64,000 nt of DNA. Source: Octopus sinensis. Its lineage: Eukaryota. Under the pieces are notes generated by a model. It was not told where the DNA came from. It did no database searches and worked only from the letters and a program-made list of their open reading frames with translations. This document shows, piece by piece, positions 2,493-57,914 of the stretch. Both the position numbers and the translations under genes were made by a program. Where the stretch lies: positions 32,860,001 to 32,924,000 of the forward strand of contig NC_043006.1 in NCBI RefSeq assembly GCF_006345805.1. The letters run 5' to 3'. The first letter of the stretch is position 1. The number at the start of each line of letters is the position of its first letter.

Positions 2493-2852
2493 AAGGCGGC
2501 GAGCTGGCAGAAACTTTAGCACACCGGGCGAAATGCTTAGCGGTATTTCGTCTGCCGTTACGTTCTGAGTTCAAATTCCACCGAGGTAAACTTTACCTTT
2601 CATCCTTTCGGGGTCGATAAATTAATTACCAGTTACGCACTAGGGTAGATATAATCGACTTAATCCGTTTGTCTGACCTTGTTTGTCCCCTCTGTGTTTA
2701 GCCCATTGTGGGTAGTAAAGAAATAGGTATTTCGCTGTCGTTACATTCTGAGTTCAAATTCCGCCGAGGTCGACTTTGTCTTTTATCCTCTCGAGGTTGA
2801 TCTAATCGACTGGCCCCCTCCCCCAAGGTTTCGGTTCTTATAGAAAAGAATA
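2493..2852 (+). mobile_element. SINE family A (tRNA-like head, Nin-like central domain) with partial internal duplication
   Basis: aaggcggcgagctggcagaa head, B-box-like gagttcaaattcc, central cctttcatcctttcggggtcgataaattaa; module repeats from about 2726. Confidence 0.9.
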
Positions 2853-3267
2853 TCAGAGTTCTCATTCTGACAGTTTTCATTTTACTATCGCATAGTCTAA
2901 CAGAGATTTAATATATACCATTAATACACTTCTTTACTCTATCGATTTACCGGAAACCAATCTAAAGACACACTTTTCAAGTCTAAAAAGAAAATAGGAC
3001 TTGCATACACACTGTGTTTACAGTTCTGTATTTAAGAGGTGTATTTAAATACACCGTGTTTATACTGTAACGTAAGATTTTAATCGAGTACTTGACTGTC
3101 TTTTAATCAGAAGCAGAGTTTCAACCACTCGAAAATAGCGAGTTCTCCAAGTGTTTCTCAATATCTGATGATGTTGTCGGTATTCTTACAATTAAACAAA
3201 CTTAATGATCAGTATTAATATTTTCATCGATTTTTGTATGGAGAAATGCCTACCAGCATTAATTATA

Positions 3268-3625
3268 TTATATTTTATTTGTTTCAGACATGGGATTTTG
3301 AAGCGTTTTTAATCAAACAAATTACACCTAGTGCTTACATTTTTATGTTTGAAACCAATTTTATCGGTTTTTTTTTTTACTGAACCGCTATGGTGTGCGG
3401 TCTTAAACCAAGACCGTTTGTCAAACAGTGGGAGTACAAACACAAACAGAAAGACACACACACACACTCGGCAGGCTTCCACATAGACAGTTACCACCAA
3501 CCAAATTCACGCACAAGACATTGTTCTGTTAGTCTCCCCGGCGCTATACTAGAACATACTTGCTCAAGGTGCCTCGCAGCGGGACTGAACTCGAAACCAC
3601 TCGGTCGCAAAGCGCGCTTCACTTA
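3268..3625 (-). mobile_element. SINE family B, decayed
   Basis: ttgtttcag..accaaattcacgcacaag..ttgctcaaggtgcctcgcagcgggactgaac. Confidence 0.75.
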
Positions 3626-4825
3626 AGCAAAAGTTTTATTGTGAAATATTTTCATGTGTAGAGTATAAATGGCTCATCATTTAAATATTTATTTTGTTGA
3701 GATAAAAATGTAGGGTTTGGTTTTAGAGATCTTTTACCGTTAAGTGTTCCCGATCAAACGATAACGTATCGGCCCATCTCGTTGGTTCACAATTATATAT
3801 ATCGCTATATCGCTATCAATTACTGTGACTTTGATGTTAATAAATTCTCATTGAATCTCGATATGTCGTGCCGTAACTACGGAACTTTCTATCGTGATGC
3901 AATTATTTGATCAGTAAAGTAATCTTCTCCAATCTGACAAGTTATATTTGTCATAAAATCTACGGTTAAATATTAGAAAGCTAGGGTGTATACGAACGGA
4001 AATCACTCTACCGGAATTTAGATATGTTAATGGCAAAATATATTCAAAAGCGTAGGTATATTACTTTGCTGTAATGAGAGAAAATCTCGATTGTTTCAAG
4101 GTGTCGTCGTTCCTACGACACATCTCTCACTTTACTAATCTTAATCTTCTTGTTTCTATTTCTTCGTATAATTTTCTTTTTTACTACATTTGCACAGACT
4201 TTTCTGGTCGTAGAACTCTTTAAGTCTCCTTGAAATTAAAGTTTAAAGAAGCTTACTTTAACCCAGCAGCAATTGTATCAATAATGTGATATCAATGACA
4301 CTTTTAAATATGCCCTATTTTTGTTCAAGGTTACAGTTAAAATTCGCCATGGGGCGCTGGAAGCCAGCTTATTGAGAAATTCTTTAAAAGTGTTAAAATA
4401 ATAATATTGTAGCTTCTAATTCCCCTAGGAGGTTATATAAATTACAGAAGAAACAATTGCTGCAATACATGGAGTTGTGTAGCATTTAAAAAAAAATCTG
4501 CCTGTGACATGGTTATTCTTTCTATATAGTAATATTTGATACTCCAGGCTCTCACTCTGTAACGATATTACTGATTCCAGCCTATCAGACTGAAGTTTTT
4601 AATTTTTCATTTATTACTCGTGACTATAAATATGCATTCATTTTATTACAAAACTTTCAAGGGCAGAATTAAATATTCTTTCCTTCCTTAAATCCAGTTA
4701 CCCAAACTGATTAGGAAGACTCCATAATCTGTGAAAAATTTCTAGACTTCCGCGAGATTAGATGTATTTTAGTATAATTTACAAAAATTTCATCTAATGT
4801 AGTCAGAATTATGTACATTATTTAC

Positions 4826-5287
4826 ATATTCTGAGGCAGAATTTTGTCCATAAAATATAGGTATAGTTTCCGAGGGAAAAATGTTTGATAACATCAAATG
4901 CATTCATCATCCTGATTGAAATAGGGTAAAATATTTAATTACAATTCATCAGTCAGAACATTATAACTATCGCACTCCTAGTAATACTATTAATTGTTGA
5001 ATCAACAACTATTATCATACCATATCATATCAGATATGATATGGTATGATAATAGTTGTTGATTCAACAATTAATAGTATTACTAGGAGTGCGATATGGT
5101 ATGATAATAGTTGTTGATTCAACAATTAATAGTATTACTAGGTGTGCGATAGTTATAATGTTCTGACTGATGAATTGTAATTAAATATTTTACCCTATTT
5201 TAATCAGGATGATGGATGCATTTGATGTTATCAAACATTTTTCCCTCGGAAACTATACGTATATTTTACGGACAAAATTCTGCCTCA

Positions 5288-5812: not shown

Positions 5813-6884
5813 TTTATTATTAGAACATGGGAACTAGGTATTTTCGGAAGTGCTTTTGGTTTTCATTTTTGTTAGATTTTTTTTTTCCGCTGTGTTTCGA
5901 CCATCATCATGTCAATATTAATAACACATGCACTGGTACAATTCTACTCCTTTATTGCAAATTAATTGGTTAAATGTCTGTCCAGCTAACAAATCTATCG
6001 TTTGTTTAACTGTTTGGTTAAACAGTTAATTGTTTTTTGTCAGTTCTTTCATCATGAATCGCAACCTTTTCAGTGACTTATCTCATTAATTTCTTCGTCG
6101 TTTTCCTATTCCCAAAATAACTTAGCTGGTTTTGAACAAGGTCCCATTTTACTTTCAGACATGGAAAAATGCTGTTACTAAAGTGGTGAAATAATTATAT
6201 TTATTATAAAAAAGAACAGCCGATGTATTTTTTAAGTGGCAAAAGTTTGTACATTGAGGGTGGATCATTTCGTGCAAGATCACCGGAAGGTGGCCTCTCG
6301 GTATAGACGGCCTACCACCCTCATGACAAGTCCCAATATCAGGGCTACCCAGGAAAATTCCAGTCTTTGTTCTTATATAAATCCAGCTTTGCTTCTTTGA
6401 TGGGTTAAAAGATCCAGAGGCACTTCAGTATTATTAGAAATATTATTGTCGTGTCTAGGACAGCCATAAATCGGTTTCCGAAGCCAGTTGTTTTCATTTT
6501 TCTGTTTCCTTTCGCACTTACAGATGAATAATCCTTCTTTTATATTATATCACAAAATGCTTAAACGTCGCGTTGTACGTATTTATTATATATACTAAAT
6601 AACCAATCTCGCGTTTGGCTAACTTGCAAGGCAGGAGAGAATTTCTCGGCGCTGTCAATAACAATCTCCACAAAGTATTTTATTACAGACCTCCTTTTGT
6701 CCACGTGTATATTTATTCGGATAGAGAAAGAGAGAGAGAGAGAGAAAGAGAGAGGGGAGGAGAGAGAGATGAAAAACTGACGAAGAATGGAAAGCAAATT
6801 TGTTAAGGTGCATAGCCATACATTATTTATCCATCTATCTGTCTATCTATCTATTTCTTTCTTTCTCTCTCTCTCTCTCTCTCC

Positions 6885-6923
<39 letters not shown>

Positions 6924-8044
6924 ATATATATATATATATCGTCCATAAGTCGTGTTCATCCCACGTGCTTCCACCCACTTAGTTGCGTAATATTTGATAT
7001 TAAAGTGATTCGGGACTAATAGTATTTTTATTACAGTATCTTACCGAATGCTGACGCAAAATATAATATTTAGTCCCGATATATTCACCTATAATATTCT
7101 GCAGAAAATATACTGAATAAAATATAGAGTAAAGAAACAATGATTAATCTTTATAGGTAGATTGTTGTATAAGTTATGACTGACTGCGGTAATAGGAACT
7201 GTCTGATTTTCCATTTAAATAATAACCGAAACCAATGAAATGATTTCCTTTTACAGCATAAGTGATGTCTATAGGTTTCTAATTTTTCATACATTTTCTC
7301 ATATATTCATACGTAAAAGCTTCCAGATAAATAATGACTATAGAATCACTCCTCTCGTGTCCTTTCTACTTATTGCATTACGATGCAGTCTTTAATTTGG
7401 TCGTCGTTTCTTTCGGAGTTATATTTATATCAGATGTATTTCGTATGTAAAGTTATATTGTAGAAAGCTCCAATTATCTGTTATGTGATTGATATTTACT
7501 CATATGTTGGTTTAGCGCCAATCATTTTGTAGGGAGTGTATAGTCTCTGCAATTGCTCCCACGATCTGACTGGTACTTTATTTTATCGGCCCAGAATGTC
7601 ACATTTGGATTCAGAATAAACAGGTTCGGAACGGCAAAGCATTTTGTTTTACACTCACAACATCGCTCTAAAAAGTCATGAATGATTCTATTTCCTACCG
7701 TTGTATTCACACTGACACGCAAAAATATACACACATGTTTTTGTGTCTTTCATCTCTCTCTGTCTCCGTCTGTTTCCCTCTCCCTTTCTCTCTCTCTCTT
7801 CTGTGTGTGTGTGTATGTGTAAAATATTATAACAGCCGTATTTTTCAGCTGATTTTCTCTAAACCAGGAACATACATTACTTATATGTTCCAGGGATGGT
7901 TTTAGACTCTTAAAATTGTTCAAATAGTGAGGAATGGTCCCCCTATGGACAGAAAACACCCGTTCGTGGGTTACGTGGAGAAGGGCGGTCACTCTTTGCG
8001 AAATAACCTTCAGAAATTGATTGTCTCCCTTGTCCATTTCCATA

Positions 8045-9986: not shown

Positions 9987-10403
9987 AAGGGCGGCGAACT
10001 GGTAGATTTATTAGAATGCCAGGCGAGATGCTTAGCGGTATTTCGTCCGGTGTTACGTTCTGAGTTCAAATTCCGCCGAGGTCGACTTTGCCTTTCATCC
10101 TTTCGGGGTCGATAAATTAAGTACCAGTTACGCACTGGAGTCGATGTAATTGACTTAATCCCTTTCTCTGTCCTTGTTTGTCCCCTCTATGTTTAGCTCC
10201 TTGTGGGCAATAAAGAAATAGGTATTTCGTCCAGTGTTACGTTCTGAGTTCAAATTCCGCCGAGTTCGACTTCGCCTTACATCCTTTCTGGGTCGATTAA
10301 ATAAGTACCAGTTACGCACTGGGGTCGATATAATCGACTTAATCCGTTTGTCTGTCCTTGTTTGACCCTATATGTTTAGACTGCTGTAGGCAGTAAAGAA
10401 ATA
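9987..10403 (+). mobile_element. SINE family A with two internal modules
   Basis: Same head; ggtatttcgtcc..gttacgttctgagttcaaattccgccgag at about 10037 and about 10221. Confidence 0.9.
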
Positions 10404-10426
10404 AATGTTATATATATTACCTCTTT

Positions 10427-10618
10427 AAGGCGGCCAGATGGCAGAATCGTTAGCACGTCGGGCAAAATGCTTAGATGCATTACGTCCGCTTGAGGTGAAA
10501 TGCTGCCGAGGTCGGCTTTGCTTTCATCCTTTCAGAGTTGATAAAATAAGTACCAGTTAAGTACTGGGGTTGATACTCTCCAAATTACTGGCCTTGTGCC
10601 AAATTTTGAAACCAATAT
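10427..10618 (+). mobile_element. SINE family A, older short form
   Basis: aaggcggccagatggcagaatcgttagcac..gataaaataagtaccag..ggccttgtgccaaaattttgaaaccaata. Confidence 0.85.
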
Positions 10619-11504
10619 TATCTTTATCAGGACAGTTATTAGTTTATATATGAGGATATATATTCCAATATTCGTGGACATAGCTGGGTTGTAATGTAGA
10701 AGGCTGGTGGGGGGGATCGGTGAAAGATGCAAAATTAAGATTTTCAATGGAAAGGAAATTATTTTGGAGCAGGAAGGTATTAAGTTACACAGAGATAATA
10801 TTTTCTACTAAACGTTTATATCTGTTTGAAAGACACCATCATTTTTGTTACTTTGTGTGAACTTCCGTGTTTGTCATCGACACTTTGTGCGCTTATGTCA
10901 TAAAGTCATTATTTATTTTCAGGTCGGTGGCAATATATGATGTACGAATCGTAACATAGCAATTTTGCTGACTTATACAGAGTTGCATTATATTTAAACC
11001 TTGTGTATTATAGGATTCAGACAAATGCAATATCGTGTGAATGGAAGAAAGATAGATGATAGCGGAAAGAGAGATAGGGAATAGCAGTGAAAACAAGAAA
11101 GTGAAGTAAAAAAAAATGGATTAAAAATAGTTAGTCTATACTTCTAGGAATTATAGCTTGAAACAGCTTCATAGCATTTAGGAAGCACAATGTGAGATCA
11201 AGCGAGATGGTATACGAGATAAATATAAATTATTTTCAAAAAAAAAAGTTACGGAAATTTGTATAGGTTTAAATAAAAAAGAAAAGATAAGGGATGTAGA
11301 CAGAAAGACTGAACCAGATCTAATGTAAAAGGGAAAGAAATATTTTTACAGAGAAAAATAGATAAAATATATAAAAAATATAAAATATATATAATGATGC
11401 TTTTTTTTGGTAGCTGAAAGCGAATGTGAAATCACAAATTCTATAAAGTTTTCCCCTCAGTTTAGTTAGTGTATTAAATGTGGCTACTACTACTACTACT
11501 ACTG

Positions 11505-11540
<36 letters not shown>

Positions 11541-11887
11541 TACTACTACTTCTGCTGCTGTTGCTGCTGCTACTGTTGCTGTTTTGTTATCAGTGGTGAC
11601 TTTTATTACATATGATATCAACGTTATCATCTTTAGAAAACGCTTCTTGATAATCCTTTTTATCGAATATCTTCGTGACTTCCAGGAAATAATACATTCC
11701 AGCGCCCTATTTTAGCTTTTCTACCGCCATTACTTAGTTTCTATTCTACAATAACAGATAATTATGCAATTCTTATTTTAAGCTTTTACTTTATTTGTCT
11801 ATTGGAGTTTATATGTAATCATGTTTCTAATATAATTGATCCCCTAATGCAACTACCACTACTAACAACTTTTAGCTATACATTTTA

Positions 11888-12456
11888 CCAGGGTGAGTCA
11901 AAAAGTAATGCCATTTTGTTTAGGACAGGTATAATTACCAACACAGGAACATGTATCATACATCAAAATGAAGCTGGTCCTCTGAAGATCACATCCCTAC
12001 TCTCGATATAGTCACCGTTTCTCCTAACAGCAATGTTCCACCTTCGAATGAGAGCATGTATCCCTGCCCCGTAAAATTCTGTTGACTGTCCTTTGAGCCA
12101 TTTCTTCACGACAGTTTTCACTTCCTTCTCACTGGAATAATGTTTGCCTCTCAAACCCACTTTCATGGAGCCGAAGAGAAGATAGTCTTCTAGTGACGAT
12201 GATAGTCCAATGACGAGGAAGTGAAAATTGTAGTGAAGAAGTGGCTCAAAGAACAGTCAACAGAATTTTACGGGGCAGGGATACACGCTATCATTCGAAG
12301 GTGGAACGTTGCTATTGAGAGAAACGGTGACTATGTTGAGGAGCAGGGATGTGATACACAGAGGACCAGCTTCATTTTGATGGATAATAGATGTTCCTGT
12401 GTTGGTAATTATACCTGTCCTACACTAAAATGGCATTACTTTTTGACTCGCCCTCG
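11888..12456. mobile_element. Palindromic mariner derivative: two transposase 3' ends in inverted orientation
   Basis: TIRs ccagggtgagtcaaaaagtaatgcc / ggcattactttttgactcgccctcg, with TA at 11886-11887 and 12457-12458. Both arms encode a mariner C-terminus (LFGSMKVGLRGKHYSSEKEVKTVVKKWLKGQSTEFYGAGIHALIRRWNIAVRRNGDYIE; ORFs 11963-12166 - and 12221-12472 +). Confidence 0.92.
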
Positions 12457-12534
12457 TAATTTGTTGCCGTAGCACTATGTATGTATGTATGTATGTATGT
12501 ATGTATGTATATATATATATATATATTATATATA

Positions 12535-12915
12535 TACTCTTTTACTCTTTTACTTGTTTCAGTCATTCGACTGCGGCCATGCTGGAGCACCGCCTTTAGT
12601 CGAGCAACTCGACCCCGGGACTTATTCTTTGTAAGCCCAGTACTTATTCTATCAGTCTCTTTCGCCGAACCGCTAAGTGACGGGGACATAAACACATCAG
12701 CATCGGTTGTCAAGCAATGCTAGGGGGACAAACACAGACACACACATATATATATATATATACGACGGGCTTCTTTCAGTTTCCGTCTACCAAATCCACT
12801 CACAAGGCTTTGGTCTGCCCGAGGCTATAGTAGAAGACAGCTGCCCAAGATGCCACGCAGTGGGACTGAACCCGGAACCATGTAGTTGGTTAGCAAGCTA
12901 CTTACCACACAGCCA

Positions 12916-12918
<3 letters not shown>
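12535..12918 (-). mobile_element. SINE family B (tRNA-like head, CORE-like ttgggca, internal microsatellite)
   Basis: Minus strand reads gagtggctgtgtggtaagtagcttgct..gggttcagtcccactgcgtggca..; tail (agtaaaag)n; TA runs on both sides. Confidence 0.92.
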
Positions 12919-12950
<32 letters not shown>

Positions 12951-12953
<3 letters not shown>

Positions 12954-13172
12954 GCGCTAAATCTCGCTCCGAGCATATTTTAAAAGAAGCTTTCAATTCA
13001 GCAACAAAATCTTACCAATTACTCGTAATCAACACAGGACTATTTCATATAACTATATATATATATACAGTTATATGAAATAGTCCTGTTTTGATTACTA
13101 GTAATTGGTAAGATTTTGTTGCTGAATTGAAAGCTTCTTTTAAAATATGCTCGGAGCGAGATTTAGCGCATT
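12951..13172. repeat. 104-bp inverted repeat around a (TA)n spacer
   Basis: 12951-13054 is the reverse complement of 13069-13172 with 2 mismatches. The right arm starts TA-cagttat, resembling a Tc1/mariner terminus. Confidence 0.9.
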
Positions 13173-20329: not shown

Positions 20330-21320
20330 TGGAAACTTTCCAAGATGGCTGTATTTTTAATTTGTGATTTATCAAACTAACTGAAGTATGGAAGAGTTGT
20401 GAGAAGGTTTGTTTGGCCAATAAATAACGTAAAATTTCTTGGAACTAATGTATTAGCCTCACTGCCATCCATCAACATAACCAAATTGGTGTTATTCACT
20501 TTAACCGGAAATATATTGCCTTTTCTATCCTTGTAATGTAAATACATTTCTATGTCGTGCATTTCAACTTCAATTTGCTTATGAAGTTGTTCCACACATT
20601 ACACTCTTTTTGCTTCATAGCTACAGACCGACTGAATGTTTATAATGTGTTAATTGGATTTCCGAATGCAAGAGAGTTCCATATAAAAGACACATATTGA
20701 TAACGATAGTCTGTGTATATGATGGTCATTAATCTCGAGAGAAATGTTGAATTTAATGAAACACAATGTCATATCCGATTGTATGAAGTCCACATTTGTA
20801 ATGAATAATAGATTTCACAGTTATAGTTGTTTAAACATCTTTGGTATGTGTAATGTATGGTACATGCTCATTCAATGAGTCTTTTTGTATTTCGTTCTTC
20901 GAATACAGTAGTTACCTTGACCAAACTAATCGAACCTAATATCGATTTATGTTATGAAAGAATTTTCGATGTTAACGTTGTGCTGAAATATTCCTTAAAG
21001 TAGAGATATAAATCTGGTGTGCTCTGTTATGAGGAACTTCTGTTTAAGTTACGCGTCATTCATTTTAGTTTAACAAATCTCACTCATACACATGTCATCC
21101 AAGTACTTCGAATGAACCATAAGCGACAGTACAGCAACAATACTGATCTTTGACACTAAATCCCCGATCTCTTGCAAACTACTGCCTACTACTGACTTTT
21201 GTTGTATTCCTGAGATGGCTGTAAATCATCCATGTTTTAACAATGTCAAGATCAATTAGCATCAATTCGGATCTTAACTGCAGCATCAATAATTTTTTGA
21301 AGCAAAGAACTGAAAGCTGA
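20330..21320 (-). mobile_element. Possible decayed Gypsy-type gag/protease remnant
   Basis: VKVNNTNLVMLMDGSEANTLVPRNF..IGQTNL resembles a retropepsin D(S/T)G region; upstream MNDA*LKQKFL resembles gag; heavily mutated. Confidence 0.4.
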
Positions 21321-21325
21321 TACCG

Positions 21326-21759
21326 TTCTTTTATTCTTTTATTTGTTTCAGCCATTTGACTGCGGCCATGCTGGAGCACAGTCTTTAGTAGAGCAAATCG
21401 ACGCCAGGGCCTATTCTTTGCAAGGCTAGTAATTATTCTATCGGTCTCTTTTGCCGAACCGATAAGTTACTGGGACGTGAACACAGCAGCATCGGTGGTC
21501 ATTGTTAAGAGATGTTGGGGGACAAACACAGACACACAAACACACAGAGACACACAAATACACACACACATGCATATACACATACATATATATACGACAG
21601 GCTTCATTTCAGTTTCCGTCTACCAAATCCACTCACAAGGCTTTAGTCGGCCCGAGGGTATAGTAGAAGACACTTAGCCAAGGTGCTACACAGTGGGACT
21701 GAACTAGGAAGCATGTGGCTCGTAAGCAAGCTACTTACTACTCATCCACTCCTGCGCCT
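21326..21759 (-). mobile_element. SINE family B
   Basis: gactgcggccatgctggagcac..cagtttccgtctaccaaatccactcacaaggcttt..aagcaagctacttac; a further mid-fragment lies at about 21885-21970. Confidence 0.92.
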
Positions 21760-22020
21760 ACAGTTATACAGTTAATACACAATTACTATTTATATAGTAG
21801 ATTGTCTAGTAGGCTATCAAAATAGTCCTCTTAAGTATTAATAGCTAAGAAGGTCTTTCTCTCTCCCTCTCTCCCTCTCTCCCGTTCACTTTTGCCGAAC
21901 CACTAGCTTACGGGGACGTAAACACACGAGCATCGGTTGTCAGGCGATGTTGGCGGAAAAACACATACACACAAACACACACACACACACACAATACACA
22001 CACAACACACACACACACAC

Positions 22021-22076
<56 letters not shown>

Positions 22077-22174
22077 TAGTAATAGCGTGACAACAAAAGA
22101 AAGAATGGGAGCTCGATATTATGTAAATAGAGGAATATCTCTGTAAAATAAGATGTGACAATTATTCGGTTGTT

Positions 22175-22240
22175 ATAATAAAACTCCGAGTTTCAGATGT
22201 CGGTGCGGAAGTCTGCTCCGGCATCTCGTCAGTTATTAAG
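22175..22240 (-). ncRNA. Hammerhead-like motif (left arm, minus strand; GUU cleavage triplet)
   Basis: Reverse complement reads taataa-CTGACGA-gatgccggagcagacttccgcaccgacatct-GAA-ACTC g GAGT-T-ttatta. Helix III is a short palindrome, as in minimal or dimeric PLE hammerheads. Confidence 0.6.
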
Positions 22241-22333
22241 ACAAAGCAAAAATGTTATGAAAATGACCGTTAAACAAAGGCAAGGAACGTCTTAGTAATT
22301 TCCCGGTCATTTTCATAGCATTTTCGTTTTTTT

Positions 22334-22398
22334 CTTAATAACTGACGAGATGCCGGAGCAGATTTCCGCTCCAACATCCGAAACGCGGAGTGTTATTA
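22334..22398 (+). ncRNA. Hammerhead-like motif (right arm; position 17 is G, likely inactive)
   Basis: taataa-CTGACGA(22342-22348)-GATG cc GGAGC agatttcc GCTCC aa CATC c-GAAAC(22380-22384)-gcgga-GTG-ttatta; helix I taataa/ttatta. Confidence 0.55.
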
Positions 22399-22849
22399 TG
22401 GCAACCGAATAATTGTCACATCTTATTTTATAGATATATATATATATATATTGCCTATAGATAATATATATTTGAATGGGATTTCAAATTTTATCTTTGA
22501 TCAAAACAAGTAGAAATATTACTCCTAGTACCTCGTTCTATGCATTTGTGTTGATAATAACGTCCTTCCGGTTCCCCAAGGATCTAGATAGTGGTGATAT
22601 ACAGTACTTGTTTCTATTTGTGAACGCAGTCACACGTTGTGCAAATCATCGTATTAGGATATTCCCTGTTAGTCCAAAGTAACATTTTAGCGCATCGAGT
22701 CCTGAAATATCAGCTCTTTCTACCAGCTACTTCTTCAAGCATTTGCTTCTTGGAATTCAGTGGCCAAGGGATCTTCAGGTACTTAAAGGTTGTGGTGTAG
22801 TTACATTAGTATAGTTATTCTGGCTACATACTTGAAAACCTATGTCGAG

Positions 22850-23135
22850 GAGGCAAATATTAAGCTCACTTTTTACGTTGATTTTATTGAATATTTTGCG
22901 ACAACTATCTGGGATGGAAACTTGATATTGATGAGCATGCTGCACTTATTGATACATTGATGCTATATGGTAGTTTTAACCACATGATTTTACTAGTTCG
23001 GTTGAATTTGATGCGGGTAATATTTTGTTTCTAGCTCTTCTCGTTAGTGTGCTATTTCAATGGGAAGCAGCTTTACTGCGTTACATTGCAATAGTTTTAT
23101 CTGGAGATGAGCGAGAATGTTGGTAACTTGTTTAG
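22850..23135 (-). mobile_element. Highly decayed Naiad-type PLE fragment
   Basis: Minus strand reads AASH*NSTLTR, RTSKIMWLKLPYSINVS and SCRKIFNKINVK, homologous to the AAPYYNEAL / HISWYNPP / TILNKNTIRLS segment of the 49-50 kb ORF. Confidence 0.55.
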
Positions 23136-23279
23136 TAACTGATAGTCGATGGTTCGAGCCTTTAGTTTTAAAGGTAATTTCTCATTACTTTTCGGGAAAG
23201 GGGTTGTGTTAAGCAGTGCTAAGATTCTTGGTTAAGAATCTTAACACATGTATTGATTCTTCTAATGTTAATTTCAATT

Positions 23280-23472
23280 TTTGAAACAAGGCCAGCAATT
23301 TCGAAGAATGCAGTAAGTCGATTACATTGAAACCAGTCTTCAACTAGTATTTATATCATCAACCCCGAAAGGAAGAAAGGCAAAGTCGATCTCGGCGGAA
23401 TTTGAACTCAGAAGAAATGTCGCTGGGCATTTTTGCCCGGCCTGGTAACGGTTCTGCCAGCTCGTCGACTTA
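23280..23472 (-). mobile_element. SINE family A
   Basis: ccccgaaaggaagaaaggcaaagtcgatctcggcggaatttgaactcagaa..ttctgccagctcgtcg is the reverse complement of the family sequence. Confidence 0.85.
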
Positions 23473-24024
23473 TTTAACTATTAAAATGTTAAATGTTAAC
23501 AAAGGTTTAAGTTATGTTATTATTCTAGTATTTTATCTCTAATTCTGTTCAAGTATGCCTGCTTCTGTTATGTAACAGCCTCAACATCTCATCTCTTTAG
23601 AGTCCTATGTCAGACATATTTGTTTAGAACGAAGCGAATCACAAAGTCTGCGATTTCAATGACATCGTTGTTCTACATGACGACTTGAAAGAGTTCATCA
23701 CTTTTCTTTCTAACGCAACAAGAATCTTTGTGGAATAGCACGGTTTTCCTTCTGTCATAATTATATTAACTTTGAAGTCAATAATTGTGGCTTGCGGATG
23801 TAAAATGTTTTGAGTAGGTCTTAAATTTTCCCTCCTTCATTATTTTCTTGATTTGTATATTTTCATTTTTTAAATTTCATTTTATATTATCTTTATACCA
23901 TTTCTTCTTATTTTAATAGTCCATTCTGTAAATGTTACTTCAAATCAACTGTTGTAGACAACGTAGTAGAGAAAAAGAAATATTCATCATTACAACCTCT
24001 GAATGATTATTTCCTTTCAAAATC

Positions 24025-40539: not shown

Positions 40540-41610
40540 ATTTTATGCTGTGACACACTCTCCGTTTTCTTCTCTACTGATTGAGCTTCAGTGTCCTAAC
40601 CACTCTCTCTTTATGACAAGCTCTTTTTCTCCTCGTGCTGTAGATCTTGACAACCTCAGTCTGTCCTGCCTCTTCTATGTCGCTCAACAGTTCAGTTTGA
40701 ATTATATATGACACTGTACCGGTTCTACTGATTTGTCTGCTCTCCATTTCTTCTCTTTTCCCTTCCATATGCCAGTTGGAAATCACTCTGTTGAAAAACG
40801 TTTGTGTCACCAAAATATCTTCATTAACGCCACTGAACAATAGCTGCAAACTCTTAATGGTCTTGTACAGAAATCACGGAGGCGCAATGGCCCAGTGGTT
40901 AGGGCAGCGGACTCGCGGTCATAAGATCGCGGTTTCGATTCCCAGACCGGGCGTTGTGAGTGTTTATTGAGCGAAAACACCTAAAGCTCCACGAGGCTCC
41001 GGCAGGGATGATGGTGATCCCTGCTATACTCTTTCACCACAACTTTCTCTCACTCTTACTTCCTGTTTCTGTTGTACCTGTATTTTAAAGGGCCGGCCTT
41101 GTCACTCTCTGTGTCACGCTGAATATCCCCGAGAACTACGTTAAGGGTACACGTGTCTGTGGAGTGCTCAGCCACTTACACGTTAATTTCACGAGCAGGC
41201 TGTTCCGTTGATTCGGATCAACCGGAACCCTCATCGTCGTAACCGACGGAGTGCTTCCACACACTGTACAGAACTGCACTGCCAAAGCCGTGCAAATGTC
41301 CTCTTCCCTTGTGAAGAGCACAGCTGATGTTCCTTTCAAGGAACTCGAATATGCCAATGAAATGTTTTCAGCACCAACCCTAATCGTCAACCTCGGTGGG
41401 AGCCAGAATTCAATACAACTGTTGGACTTTTCGATTGTAGTAGAATATATCGTCATTTGTTTCTCTTTAATGTATATAGAGACAGTTCTGAAGATTGAGA
41501 CACGGAAAGTTTTGACCAATTTCTCTTCTCCAGCACAAGTAAGCCTGACTTGCGAGCTTGAAACATATGGTGTTAGGGTAATAAGTTTAGCAAATAATTG
41601 CACCCTCAAC
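40540..41610 (-). mobile_element. Very decayed RTE-like LINE interrupted by the SINE at 40878
   Basis: Traces such as VDD, ISLAYSS and AVLYSV; higher GC than flanks; weak match. Confidence 0.35.
40878..41258 (+). mobile_element. SINE family C (tRNA-like head), tail type 1
   Basis: ggaggcgcaatggcccagtggttagggc (A box) ..ggtttcgattccc (B box); body closely matches 36159-36525. Confidence 0.92.
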
Positions 41611-44503
41611 CTACTCCATGCGGCACAAAATACTTGTCCTGTTAAATCTATGAATACATGTTGCTATCTTGGGTGTTATTCATGAAGCGCAGAATTTCTC
41701 TGTATTCTATCTGGGCAAACTTGTTCACTGTATTTATGACAAGAGCAAAAAGAATAGCAATCATTGCACAGCGTGTTATTATTTCTTTTGTAATCTAATG
41801 CCAATCAAAGGTCTCTGACCCAGGAATGGACCTAAGTTAAAATTACTGTAGCGATCCAGAAAATAATTCGTGATTTAATGAGAATACTTTGGCGGTTTTA
41901 ATACAAGCGAGATTAATCTATCTGAAATGAAGTCATAAATTTTGACTTGAACCAAATTCAAAATTGCTAGGTCATTTCTGTTCCTTATGGGTTTCTCTAA
42001 TAAGCTCAGTAATTAAGCCAGCAATACCCCTACAAATATTAACTTCAAGAATATGAACTCTTCTGTACAACTAGCAGTTTCAAGCTGAGGAAACCAAGTT
42101 TGAAAGAGTTTAAAGAGAACATTATGTGTTGCTCTCAGCCTTTGCTTCAGGTTCAAGTGACTCGCTTTTCGTAGATTAAGGTTATCTCAAGTTCAGCTGG
42201 TATAAGGATGAGAGCTGCCAACAATTCTGATGGAAACGAGGTGGTTTGGATTCCCAAACAGGAAACCTCAAATAATATTCTGTTTCACTGGAGGAAGTGC
42301 GTTTCTCAAGCAAAACGAATTTCTGCTCAAAAGCATGTAGCTAGGCCTATCAAACATCTGTTAGGTTCGAACTTCATTTTGAACATCGCATCGTTCTGGG
42401 CATCGTGGAGGGAAAGATGATCTTCCTCTGTTGAATAGATTGCCACTCCCTGAATTATTTGATTTGTGGACTTGTATACCTACATCTATTGAAACACACA
42501 CACACATGCACGCGCGCGCACACACACACATATACACACACAAACACAAACGCAAACTCACACATCACCGCATGTATCGATTAGACAGCGTGTGTACTTT
42601 TAAGGACGATAAATAATTATCTGCTTATTATTTGTGATTGGAATCATACTCGCACACGCAAATATACACTCACACACATACACATACGTACATACATACA
42701 TATATACATACATGCATATACTCATACATACATACATACATACACACACACATACACACACACATATATATATATATATATTGGTACATTAAATCACTAG
42801 ACGGTTAAACGAATCGACGAATTGATAAGGCGTTTCGTTTTCAATCAATATATTTGATTCTATAAAGTTGAATGTCGTTACTATTTCCATTATAAATACT
42901 TTTAATCATAAATGAAATCTATAAAGAATATTATTTATTGTGTTTCTATTTTTTTCGCTGCCGGACGAAGACTCACTTTAATAAGTTTTCATTTTATATA
43001 AAGAAATCGTTGTTTTTTTCACATTTAGTTATTTTGGGTGTAAAGAATGCAACATTATCTGGTTCAATGTACAGAGTGTCTCGTAGTATTTCTTTAGAGC
43101 CATTTACATTTTGAGATGAAATCATCCGAAGACCTACAACATTGCTTCTCGTCCTTTAAATTCCATCCACGCATGTATTTTTTAATTTTTTTGGGGGCGT
43201 TGCTGTTGCCAGAGTCGGTAGAGCGCCAAAGAAAAATGCTTGTAAGCGCCTTATAACGGAGTTACATGGCTACAAATTAGAAATGATGTGAAGAGATTGC
43301 TATATCGAAGATTCTATTTAGCGCATAGTTTGAGAGGCAGCGTCCTCTACTCATAGATGTTGCTGTCGTTCTTTTAGATAGTTTGAACTTCTCCTGGCGG
43401 AAGACACACAAGAGATACTCAAAGTCATAAATAACAGAGTAATAGCTGATCCTTAGTCTCTGCAACATCACTTTCTACCTTCATAACAGGGTACAGTTTA
43501 CAAGGTCTCGGTGGTTGTCAGGGATCGAAACAGCCCACCCGATGAAACGTAGTTTGTCATCATTTTCGTATTTTTTACCTGCCCAAACTACTACACACAG
43601 GCGGAAACAATTCAAGGGGTGAGAACAGAACCAAAGCAGCTAACAACCCACTTTGTGTTGCATGGATCCTTACAGCGGTTAAACGTCGATAAGTGAGTAC
43701 TTCACCTATCTATTTATTTCGATGAGTGAGTGTTTTTATCTATCAGTTCAGCCCAATGTTCATCTCAGCCTTGGCCTTGAAAAGCAGGTCCAAGGTCCCG
43801 TTGGATTTACGTGTATCAATGGATGTAATGCTGCTCCTTGTATCTAGAAATTCTCTCGGTTGCCCTTTTGATGCATAGATACGTTGGTTTCCTCTGTGAT
43901 CGCTCTAAAATAAATTACTCGGACAAAGTGACAGAGAATTTACAAATACAGTTTGACCATAGCTATATCTGAGCCAGTGTTTTGTCTATAAGTAAAATCA
44001 TCTTATTTGAAATAATACAGGTAAAATAATTTTTTCCACTAATGTTTTCGCATGACGAACCTTGAGTGTATGTGAGATCTAGTGTTGTTGTTCTCATCAC
44101 TGCTGTTTTACTGGTTAAGTATTAGAATTATTTTCGATTCAACAGAAGTTTTGTCTTTCCAAAAGGTCTCTGTCTAATACGAGTTCATGCTTTTTATTTT
44201 TCATTGTTTAGCACTTGCACAAACATTTTAATCCTTCTTTGAAAGGGCAGACATTAAAAACAAATCAAACGTAAATGTTGTCATAAAGTGTATCTTTTCT
44301 CCAAAAGAAAGAAAAATGCCAACAACAAATAAATTGCATTGGATTGTCATCTCATAAATGCAGAATCTTTTTCAAACCTCAAATATGAACGCAGGATTGT
44401 TTTGCTATATGTATTATTGTTTCAATGGTCATGTTCGCTCTCCCTACATGCTTTGCATCATTTCTTTTCTCTATCTTTGTCGCTATCTCTCTCACTCTCT
44501 CAC

Positions 44504-45231: not shown

Positions 45232-45778
45232 GCTTTTTTCAGTCTATTCTCCTCGTAGTACCATATATATATATATATATATATATATAGTGTATTTTGC
45301 TACCCAGGTATCGGTTATCTTTTGAATAATCCGTAACAAGATAATTCATTTATCCATTTCAATAATATATATATATATATTATATATTATATATATTATA
45401 TATTATATATATATATATATAATATAATATAATATAAAATAATATAATATATATATAATAAGAGTAAACAATAGCTTTAATGGTTTTTTAAAAAACCAAC
45501 AATTATTTACTGGTTGATTTCGGCATGTAAATATAACCATTAACGGTAGGAACTTCTGTAAAAGTTCAATATATATTTTGTATATAAATAAAAAAGGCAC
45601 GCAACAGTTCGTAAATAACTGTTAGACTTTGTTTTCGTTTTTCCTTCCTTCTGTTTTGCATATGTGAATTACAGGGATATGTCGTATGTGGAGTCTTATT
45701 TGTAGAAAATAGAAATAAGCAGTCTTTGACTGCTATTTCTAATTTTTCCGGTATGTGGCTAAGCAACCTGTTGCTTGC

Positions 45779-45822
<44 letters not shown>

Positions 45823-45897
45823 GCCATGATAGATCGGTAGCCACTAAATTTTTTTTTTTTTCTCTCCCTGTTATTTCTGTGTTCCTTTCTGTTTGAA

Positions 45898-45997
45898 NNN
45901 NNNNNNNNNNNNNNNNNNNNNNNNNNNNNNNNNNNNNNNNNNNNNNNNNNNNNNNNNNNNNNNNNNNNNNNNNNNNNNNNNNNNNNNNNNNNNNNNN
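45898..45997. other. Assembly gap (100 N)
   Basis: Run of n. Confidence 1.
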
Positions 45998-46766
45998 TAT
46001 CTCGTTATTACTTTTGTTATCTTTGGCCGCTGGTCACAAGCTCTTGGCTATGACAGCCCAGTCTATTCATCTGTCTACTGGAAAAAGACACTCATTCACT
46101 CCACGCACACTCTTAGGACGTTATTTCACTCATTCGTACTCCATACACATACACGCACGCACGCGTTATATTCCTACATACATCCATCTAATACATTAAG
46201 TATATACACATCCGGGGGCGTTACCTACAGAGTTAGTGTCTACACTCTTAGAAGGCTAGTCAATATATATACAACCAATAAATATAAATAACACACACAT
46301 ACATAAAACCTACATAAAAATACATACAGTATGTATATAATATATATATATATATATATATTATATATACATATATATATCTATTATACATAGATTATCT
46401 TACATATATACTACACATACATACACACCCCATATATACACACAATACGCATACACACACATATACCATATATATACCCTACACGCACATACACATGTAA
46501 CGTACCCATACACACACACCACGCGCGCATCCAATATATACACATAAGCACACACATGCATACAAGTATACATGTATAATGCTTACACATACACACACAC
46601 ACACGCGCCCCTTATATTCATACACACGCATACTCAAAAAATAGCTAAATAGTAAAATATATATACGCGCAGTTTTCGTACATATACTCAAAAAAATATA
46701 AATATAAATATAAGTATAGACATGCATTCTATTATATGGACGGATACATACATATACAACTTACAC

Positions 46767-56660: not shown

Positions 56661-56694
56661 GTATGTATCTATCTATAATATATATATATATATT

Positions 56695-56855
56695 GATAAA
56701 AAAGGTAAGACAACAAAAGAAAGAAAGAGACCTCGATATTATGTAAATAGATGAATTTATCTGTAAATGTAATATGGGACAATTATTCGACAGCTATGAT
56801 AAAACTCCGAGTTTTATCATGGCTACCGAATAATTGTCCCATATTACATTTACAG
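56695..56855. mobile_element. Collapsed copy of the 22085-22433 family; hairpin 56761-56855 centred on ACTCCGAGT
   Basis: Similar left extension and arm sequence to 22090-22191, then folds back at 56808; follows a (TA)n tract. Confidence 0.8.
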
Positions 56856-57914
56856 TTGTAAATGTGTGTATATATTGGTGTGTGTGTGTACGTATATATG
56901 TTTGCATACACATATGCATTAATACCTATATACATACATACATAAATGCACACAGACGTCCAGATTCAACATGCACAAATACTAACGCATACACACACAC
57001 ACACACACAGGCATGCACATACATATTGTTGATAATAGGGGATCCATGGAGGATCGAGGCATATCGAAGTGAAGCTCGCCACCGTTACTGGCTTAACAGA
57101 ATAACCTAGAACAGTTAAGTAATGCATTATCATAGCACGGAATGTATTAGTGAAAGAATGTCCTCCCTTGTTAAGTAATCCATAGATCCAATATCATGGA
57201 ATAGGATCCAACGATGATTGAATTCTTAAGCATAATAAAAACGGACGAATGGATTATCTGGTATTGCGACAATTGTTTCCATAAGAATCTTTATTTTGAT
57301 GTGAGATATGTCGTATGCATAGCATCCATAAGATTACAGAAAATGTGTTGTGTATGTGCGTGCTACGTACATGATTGTACTATGCTCACGTCATAATAAA
57401 GACTCTGTCGCCATGGGCGCTGTTTGGTTGTTGTGTCGTGGTGGAATTGGTGAATGAAAATATTTTATTTGGCAGTAACTTAAAGCAATAACTTAAACAC
57501 TACCTACGAACGGTTAACTGGATCATTTATTGCCGCTCATAAAGACAATCTACGTTGGCCATTTACAATTAACAACAGCAATAGTTAGGGAGATTGGGAG
57601 AGAACTACTATTCTGATATTACAAGAAGCTATCTGTACGGCAACATGTGGTCGGCCCAGCATAGCTAAAACTAACTGCATTATCTTCGTGGCGGCAGAGG
57701 TCCTTCGACATATGCCCTAGGTCGTCTGTTTTAGCCGTTTACTTTATATATGGAATCATCAGAGTGAGAACAAAAGAAGCCCATGTCGCTGAACTGCTTT
57801 CAATATTCTGCCTGGCAAGAGGTGAGACGTGTGAATAAATCTCAACGCTCTGCAAGGAGATTACGTGCCAAAACGACTTTTTTTTATACGGTAAAAAAAA
57901 CATTCTAGAAAACG

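Follow-up and report, generated by a model that had tools for sequence, protein, structure and literature searches.

Two truncated, hammerhead-bearing Penelope-like element ends joined head to head form a decaying fold-back insertion in Octopus sinensis

The window analyzed here is a 64,000-nt stretch of the Octopus sinensis genome (RefSeq assembly GCF_006345805.1, contig NC_043006.1, positions 32,860,001 to 32,924,000). It carries a fold-back element related to the pseudo-LTRs (pLTRs) of Penelope-like elements (PLEs), as well as a second insertion of the same family. Their features are as follows:

22026..22073, no strand: left (TA)n target tract; (TA)n is the listed target preference of Hydra PLEs
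22072..22280, minus strand: left arm, the 5'-truncated 3' end (pLTR) of a Hydra-clade PLE
22072..22137, minus strand: tail of about 65 nt, on the left arm only; in full elements it runs on into the 5' UTR and ORF
22176..22238, minus strand: left hammerhead, minimal type I by motif and covariation, with a predicted cut between 22182 and 22181
22281..22292: point where the two 5'-truncated arms meet head to head, with short filler; boundaries approximate
22289..22435, plus strand: right arm, a second 5'-truncated pLTR copy, terminating at the short 3' end (about +44)
22336..22398, plus strand: right hammerhead motif, in decay, with triplet GUG and a broken pair in helix III
22436..22451, no strand: right (TA)n tract, the right-hand junction
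56692..56856: second, independent inverted insertion (long and short end), whose arms meet at the helix III palindrome (56801-56815)

The inverted repeat is made of outer arms at 22124-22245 and 22329-22450 (122 nt, 87% complementary, flanked by (TA)n tracts) and an inner pair at 22243-22274 and 22299-22330 (32 nt, 84% complementary). The computed fold of 22124-22436 was one single hairpin with an MFE of -196 kcal/mol. A first-pass annotation had described a roughly 290-bp fold-back between (TA)n tracts. The fold-back is real, but its full extent is 22072-22435 and it is asymmetric, with about 65 nt more on the left arm that are unmatched on the right. The left arm extends to the long 3' end (about +110 relative to the cleavage site) and matches the pLTR unit of retrieved locus L031, which runs into an RT-endonuclease ORF, at 87% over 204 nt; likeness to family sequence stops after 22280. 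The junction at 22281..22292 is unique to this copy. The two arms differ at 11 of 110 positions, each mismatch being unpaired in the hairpin. As annotated, the element is non-coding, with no ORF of at least 150 aa overlapping it. The locus is an ordinary decaying insertion in which two cut-short Penelope-like ends are joined back to back.

A SINE-like repeat that is very common and ends in (CA)n is present at window 21330-21760 and 21885-22025, as copies or fragments. The fold-back was inserted at the tail of the second of these, and many of the retrieved loci are flanked by this repeat as well. Elsewhere in the window, a 157-codon open frame at 41212-41685 (plus strand) has a normal protein-like composition, gave no Pfam match and is possibly an exon, and an assembly gap (a run of N) lies within 45566-46033.

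A hammerhead motif had been claimed on each strand, and the helices and core are as named. CTGACGA starts at 22342 on the plus strand and at 22232 on the minus strand, and helix II, GAAAC, helix III and a helix I of taataa/ttatta are present in both motifs. The left arm conforms to the CUGANGA/GAAA/NUH core with three helices, as it has CUGACGA, GAAA, the triplet GUU and a palindromic helix III, ACUC-G-GAGU. The right motif is decayed; its triplet is GUG compared to GUU or GUC in the family, and one helix III pair is broken. Under the NUH rule, a G in that position of the triplet prevents cutting. The computed self-pairing of the helix III 12-mer was -12.1 kcal/mol for the left arm and -7.3 kcal/mol for the right arm. 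The model search that had been proposed did not recover the motif, since an Rfam scan of 21000-23500 at E<=10 returned no hammerhead family and merely chance miRNA-type matches. Therefore, the assignment to minimal type I hammerheads is based on motif and covariation and not on Rfam.

Covariation was assessed in 67 rows, namely 65 of 85 motif hits plus the two window arms; the 20 hits left out had junction-cut flanks or indels or belonged to another family. The hammerhead structure had 86% of cells paired compared to 32-52% in slid controls. There were 48 two-sided changes compared to 18.5 +/- 7.5 in shuffles (0 of 500), a test that kinship of the sequences inflates, and the core columns were fixed by the row selection. 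Most of the signal came from two pairs, one in helix I (G-C 28, A-U 22, G-U 11) and one in distal helix II (C-G 32, U-G 20, U-A 10), while helix III was 95% paired with no two-sided change. The covariation expected across helices I-III was thus borne out for helix I and distal helix II but not for helix III. Because the core was preselected and the sequences are related, the covariation, judging from this alignment, shows selection between active subfamilies and not in the copy at 22072-22435.

Cleavage in vivo was assessed by counting the 5' ends of arms at the cut site and at a control offset. The cut site was not enriched, with 56 of 3094 arms breaking just upstream of it compared to 55 of 3953 at the control offset, and 19 of the 56 breaks were plain 1-nt indels by eye. 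The lack of an excess suggests that the RNA was copied mostly uncut at this site, in agreement with Frangieh et al. 2024 (PMC11167929).

The search for the family covered 2.72 Gb of genome and gave 3033 first-look candidates for the pLTR unit. A 15-mer from the core had 905 exact matches compared to 0 for the reversed control, so the hammerhead-bearing unit is not due to chance. A downstream 17-mer had 3953 exact matches compared to 1 for its control. Since 35 of 116 sampled arms matched the 17-mer exactly, the genome total is about 10,000-13,000 arms as a rough figure. In the second window insertion, both catalytic cores are absent.

The first-pass annotation had attributed the element to PLE machinery, and the retrieved loci confirm this origin. 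In L025 and L031, the pLTR unit, in which the hammerhead is located, continues past the tail into a 5' UTR and then an ORF, whose ATG lies 211-215 nt after the cleavage site (215 in these two loci). The L031 ORF is decayed but retains the order RT, then GIY-YIG endonuclease (EN). Its identity to an intact 708-aa ORF is 72-82% (aa) over four RT and C-terminal segments and 54-75% in frameshifted segments. A search with the N-terminus of this ORF led to open frames of about 700-727 codons. Among 150 scored of 1993 candidates, none had an intact ORF of the focal subfamily, and the intact-ORF copies carry a pLTR that is 75% related to the focal unit. Thus, the autonomous PLE that had been predicted to share the pLTR is represented by the L031 unit with its decayed ORF and by intact ORFs with the related pLTR.

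The intact copy at L075 has a single ORF of 708 aa (<3 kb) with RT motifs at 197-349 followed by C-terminal EN motifs at 574-693. Its motifs include RWK at 37, DKT (in place of DKG) at 114, FDIVDFY, MGSYDG, YKDD, YVGLTE and RFNNH, together with the cysteine motifs CxCx5C (CSCRNKELC, 557), CxxC (CGLC, 660) and CxH (CPH, 691). Pfam gave no family for the 708-aa or the 727-aa ORF, with sub-threshold matches for three relatives, and a PDB sequence search with the ORF gave nothing significant. The protein search found 979 relatives among 7999 scored, with no name among the 120 matches listed. The RT and EN assignments are based on motifs and on resemblance to published Hydra proteins, compared by eye. 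The pLTRs of L075 are in direct orientation (98.9%), and L076, L077 and L080 have head-to-head pLTR arms (1.2-1.8 kb, 97-99%); both kinds of end, long and short, are retained in these copies. A dinucleotide repeat (AT, AC or GT admitted) immediately follows 53 of 56 short ends and 42 of 60 long ends. By its motifs, (TA)n target and pLTR hammerhead, the family is, on sequence grounds, a Hydra-clade PLE.

Several other loci were noted. The pLTRs of the youngest Hydra family, which has open 708-codon ORFs (L073-L077, L084 and L086; for example L075:3204-3286, minus strand), have the core CCGAAGA, with C at position 4 where U is normal in 8 of 8 aligned rows and with helices I-III retained; this is possibly a weakened or variant ribozyme. 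A second Hydra-like family is represented by L082 and L088, whose 727-codon open frames (2871-5051 and 2943-5123) are 44% identical to L075. Its pLTRs are inverted (97-98%) and its hammerhead is of far smaller size, with the helix III ACUC-N-GAGU common to both families. At L019:1750-1950, a pLTR arm adjoins the C-terminal endonuclease region of an opposite-strand ORF, which is an inverted insertion with very unequal arms. L108 contains two direct units of different subfamilies 4.2 kb apart (2533-3042 and 6800-7271). Unrelated hammerhead-like motifs (CTGANGA...GAAAC) at L137:4011-4093, near 7421 in L080 and near 1068 in L088 suggest further ribozyme-bearing repeat families in the genome.

The insertion census used two samples, each taken from the first 100 listed matches of one of two patterns and collapsed to loci on contigs C1 and C2; from sample 2, duplicates, one direct neighbor 1.4 kb from another match and 9 sample 1 loci were excluded. 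Sample 1 (90 loci) contained 42 head-to-head pairs, 45 single arms and 3 loci without a scored arm, and sample 2 (77 loci) contained 41 pairs and 36 singles. About half of the 167 sampled insertions were head-to-head pairs and half were single arms. A tail-to-tail neighbor was found at one locus of sample 1, about 1.1 kb away, and at two loci of sample 2.

Counted from the cleavage site, the arms end either near +110 with the tail (long) or near +37 to +47 (short), where short-end alignments blur into TA up to about +66. One long and one short end were combined in 34 of the 38 classifiable pairs of sample 1 (P=3e-7 compared to independent choice) and in all 39 of sample 2 (P=2e-12). Over both samples, this makes 73 of 77 pairs, with 4 otherwise; another 6 of 83 pairs (4 in sample 1 and 2 in sample 2) were unclassed because one arm was too truncated. 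Single arms used the two ends equally, with 20 long, 23 short and 2 truncated in sample 1 and 20 long and 16 short in sample 2. A rare long/long pair at L061:1274-1665 has arms that are 97% identical with the same 5' end on both sides and may stem from later hairpin duplication or conversion.

The junction was distinct in 72 of the 73 long/short pairs, suggesting that the palindrome is made anew at each insertion. The arms overlapped by at least 2 nt in 31 of the 73 pairs, abutted in 12 and were separated by a gap of 2-15 nt in 17 and by a larger gap in 13. Sequence was shared between the arms in 68 pairs, and the arms were non-overlapping in 5. The sole repeated junction (-13/-31) occurs in L176 and L212 on a 5-nt GTTTC microhomology, and the flanks are unrelated. 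In 34 of 35 cases, the partner within an insertion resembled an arm more closely than the median other arm did, and in 2 the partner was the best match of all, which fits a common source followed by independent decay. Junctions on or beside the helix III palindrome and GTTTC were seen at window 56801-56815 and in L149, L166, L196, L176 and L212, and these positions suggest that joining is favored at palindromes within the ribozyme itself. An empty site was not encountered, and a target-site duplication is unreadable inside (TA)n.

The identity of the arms, their long and short ends, the unique junctions and the decay were observed directly. Together, they make it highly probable that the insertion consists of two 5'-truncated, hammerhead-bearing PLE 3' ends, set head to head in (TA)n, likely by priming on both target strands in one event. 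The RT-endonuclease protein, probably as a dimer, would cut both strands of (TA)n. On uncleaved RNA, priming from one target strand would begin at about +110 and from the other at about +44. Both cDNAs would stop early and their ends would be joined via microhomology or short filler, while loss of one cDNA would leave a single arm. Long/short pairing in 73 of 77 pairs, together with equal use of the two ends in singles, constrains the mechanism to coupled, asymmetric double priming. The template could be one RNA copied twice or two RNAs, as the arm overlap in 68 of 73 pairs requires either strand displacement on one RNA or two RNAs. Tight junctions gave no significant support (p 0.10-0.13) to a trailing-RT model, in which the long arm would end behind the short one. 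The palindrome would be a dead-end by-product, and in read-through RNA from it a long hairpin would form and keep the ribozyme inactive. In vitro work on a Poseidon PLE (PMC11167929) established that both target strands are cut and extended and that reverse transcription has two internal start sites on the RNA, which mark the limits of the tail; a dimeric form of the protein was predicted.

A more speculative and rather doubtful extension is that the Hydra PLE hammerhead is mainly an RNA-pairing module and not a cutter, with helix III joining two RNAs that are asymmetrically primed by one dimer. If true, this role would explain the overlapping arms, the strict long/short pairing, the junctions on helix III, the missing 5' ends at the cut site and the retention of helix III with the CCGAAGA core.

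Another possible explanation, which we consider unlikely, is a single priming event followed by fold-back, in which the cDNA, having switched to itself or to antisense RNA as template, is copied into a hairpin. Fold-back self-priming was discussed by Arkhipova 2013 (PMC3846280). The overlap of the arms in 68 of 73 pairs and the several junctions on the helix III palindrome are consistent with it, as is a correlation between the arm 5' ends (rho 0.44, p 9e-5; tight junctions 0.30, p 0.018), although this correlation may stem from limits of the reference copies. However, the 5 pairs with non-overlapping arms would be impossible by fold-back copying, and the fixed other end of the second arm in 73 of 77 pairs is unexplained, though both ends terminate singles.

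The first-pass annotation had instead proposed a non-autonomous, MITE-shaped palindromic ribozyme element mobilized as a unit by PLE proteins. Palindromes do make up about half of the insertions, with arms from one source lineage, and one junction was found twice. This proposal is nevertheless very improbable, because 72 of 73 junctions are distinct, the repeated one lies on microhomology with unrelated flanks, singles are as frequent as pairs, and full-length autonomous copies carry the same inversion. MITEs have fixed terminal inverted repeats and uniform length and internal sequence, whereas here the two ends differ and nearly every junction is distinct.

It had also been suggested that transcripts from either strand could switch between self-cleavage and a dsRNA hairpin. 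Use of such an RNA switch by the host would be in keeping with the intact left core and with the covariation of the family structure between subfamilies, but it is extremely improbable at this locus. In a thermodynamic model without tertiary contacts, forcing the hammerhead fold on the full palindrome cost 74.7 (plus) and 73.8 (minus) kcal/mol relative to the ensemble, compared to 11-14 kcal/mol for an isolated arm. Given the head-to-head geometry, transcription of either strand reaches the antisense arm first and the ribozyme second, which leaves the ribozyme no co-transcriptional window. Further points against a switch are the 11 differences between the arms over 110 positions and the GUG triplet of the right motif. 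Contigs of two presumed RNA runs contained short family pieces and left the unique flank of the locus uncovered. Finally, a DNA-transposon MITE with (TA) target sites, which the annotation had named as the competing possibility, would fit the palindromic shape and the TA flanks but has practically no chance of being correct, as the termini at +110 and +44 differ in sequence and hence form no terminal inverted repeat, the inner ends vary, and the linked ORF is an RT and not a transposase.

The inverted form had been described as not known to be a named class, but opposite-strand hammerhead pairs and inverted pLTRs are already published (Arkhipova 2013; Cervera and De la Pena 2014; Craig et al. 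2021). An inverted 5'-truncated copy with a tail at one end is a typical PLE insertion (PMC3846280; PMC8557442), the inverted pLTR form is in the Fig. 2 legend of Craig et al. 2021 (PMC8557442), Penelope-13_HM carries hammerheads on both strands (PMC8557442), and dual min-HHRs lie 100-700 bp apart on opposite strands in Schistosoma (PMC4209133). The element at 22072-22435 shares with the PLE inverted units the head-to-head 5'-truncated copy, the tail at one end and the hammerheads on both strands, but both of its arms are stumps without an ORF (PMC3846280; PMC8557442). Like the minimal PLE hammerheads, its motif is type I with a palindromic helix III suited to dimers, whereas the unpaired base lies 3' of helix II here and between positions 9 and 10.1 there (PMC4209133). 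Non-LTR retrozymes are likewise non-coding and pLTR-derived with a type I hammerhead and are defined as tandem repeats (bioRxiv 10.64898/2026.07.22.740005). Identity with a retrozyme was rejected since tandem direct repeats with a hammerhead are absent, with no direct neighbor within 1.5 kb at any of the 90 sample 1 loci.

Dimeric variants of PLE hammerheads were reportedly described in a 2017 paper. In L1 twin priming, as here, two target-strand primers give an inverted product with a microhomology junction. The L1 arms are adjacent, non-overlapping parts of one RNA and are primed by homology, whereas the octopus arms start at fixed sites and mostly overlap. The coupled double priming proposed here also differs from that of Poseidon, a PLE of another clade, for which no start-site difference between the strands was reported (PMC11167929), while the Hydra-clade pairs are strictly long/short.

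The nearest known element is Hydra-1_Obim, listed in the supplement of Craig et al. 2021 (PMC8557442), from which the Hydra-clade features were taken. The octopus family shares with this clade the short single ORF with RT and then C-terminal EN, the RWK, DKT, CxCx5C, CxxC and CxH motifs, the (TA)n target and a hammerhead near the 3' end, and its helix III actc-N-gagt is as in Hydra-2_aMil, Hydra-1/2_aJap and Penelope-3/16_HM (PMC8557442 and its supplement). It is separate from Hydra-1_Obim, as the protein is roughly half identical by eye and the hammerhead differs in sequence, with a longer helix II and one bulged base next to GAAA. Its RT motif, YKDD, is unlike that of Hydra-1_Obim and the Hydra clade, and its tail is about 65 nt compared to the 30-40 bp reported for PLEs. 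A 2026 annotation of Octopus vulgaris lists 31 recently active PLE families. The available text of the literature searched contained no count of long/short pairing and no description of the octopus family. The family is new, set apart by eye comparison and with a Repbase or Dfam entry possible, and the insertion form is known; the strict long/short pairing is the one result without a count in that literature. Inverted pLTR stumps are easily misfiled as MITEs in repeat libraries. Craig et al. 2021 (PMC8557442) list the formation of PLE inverted units as unresolved. This one locus is a stump in decay; the value lies in the family, whose thousands of short insertions record how such units form and whose young open-frame copies in the same genome make the mechanism testable in vitro.
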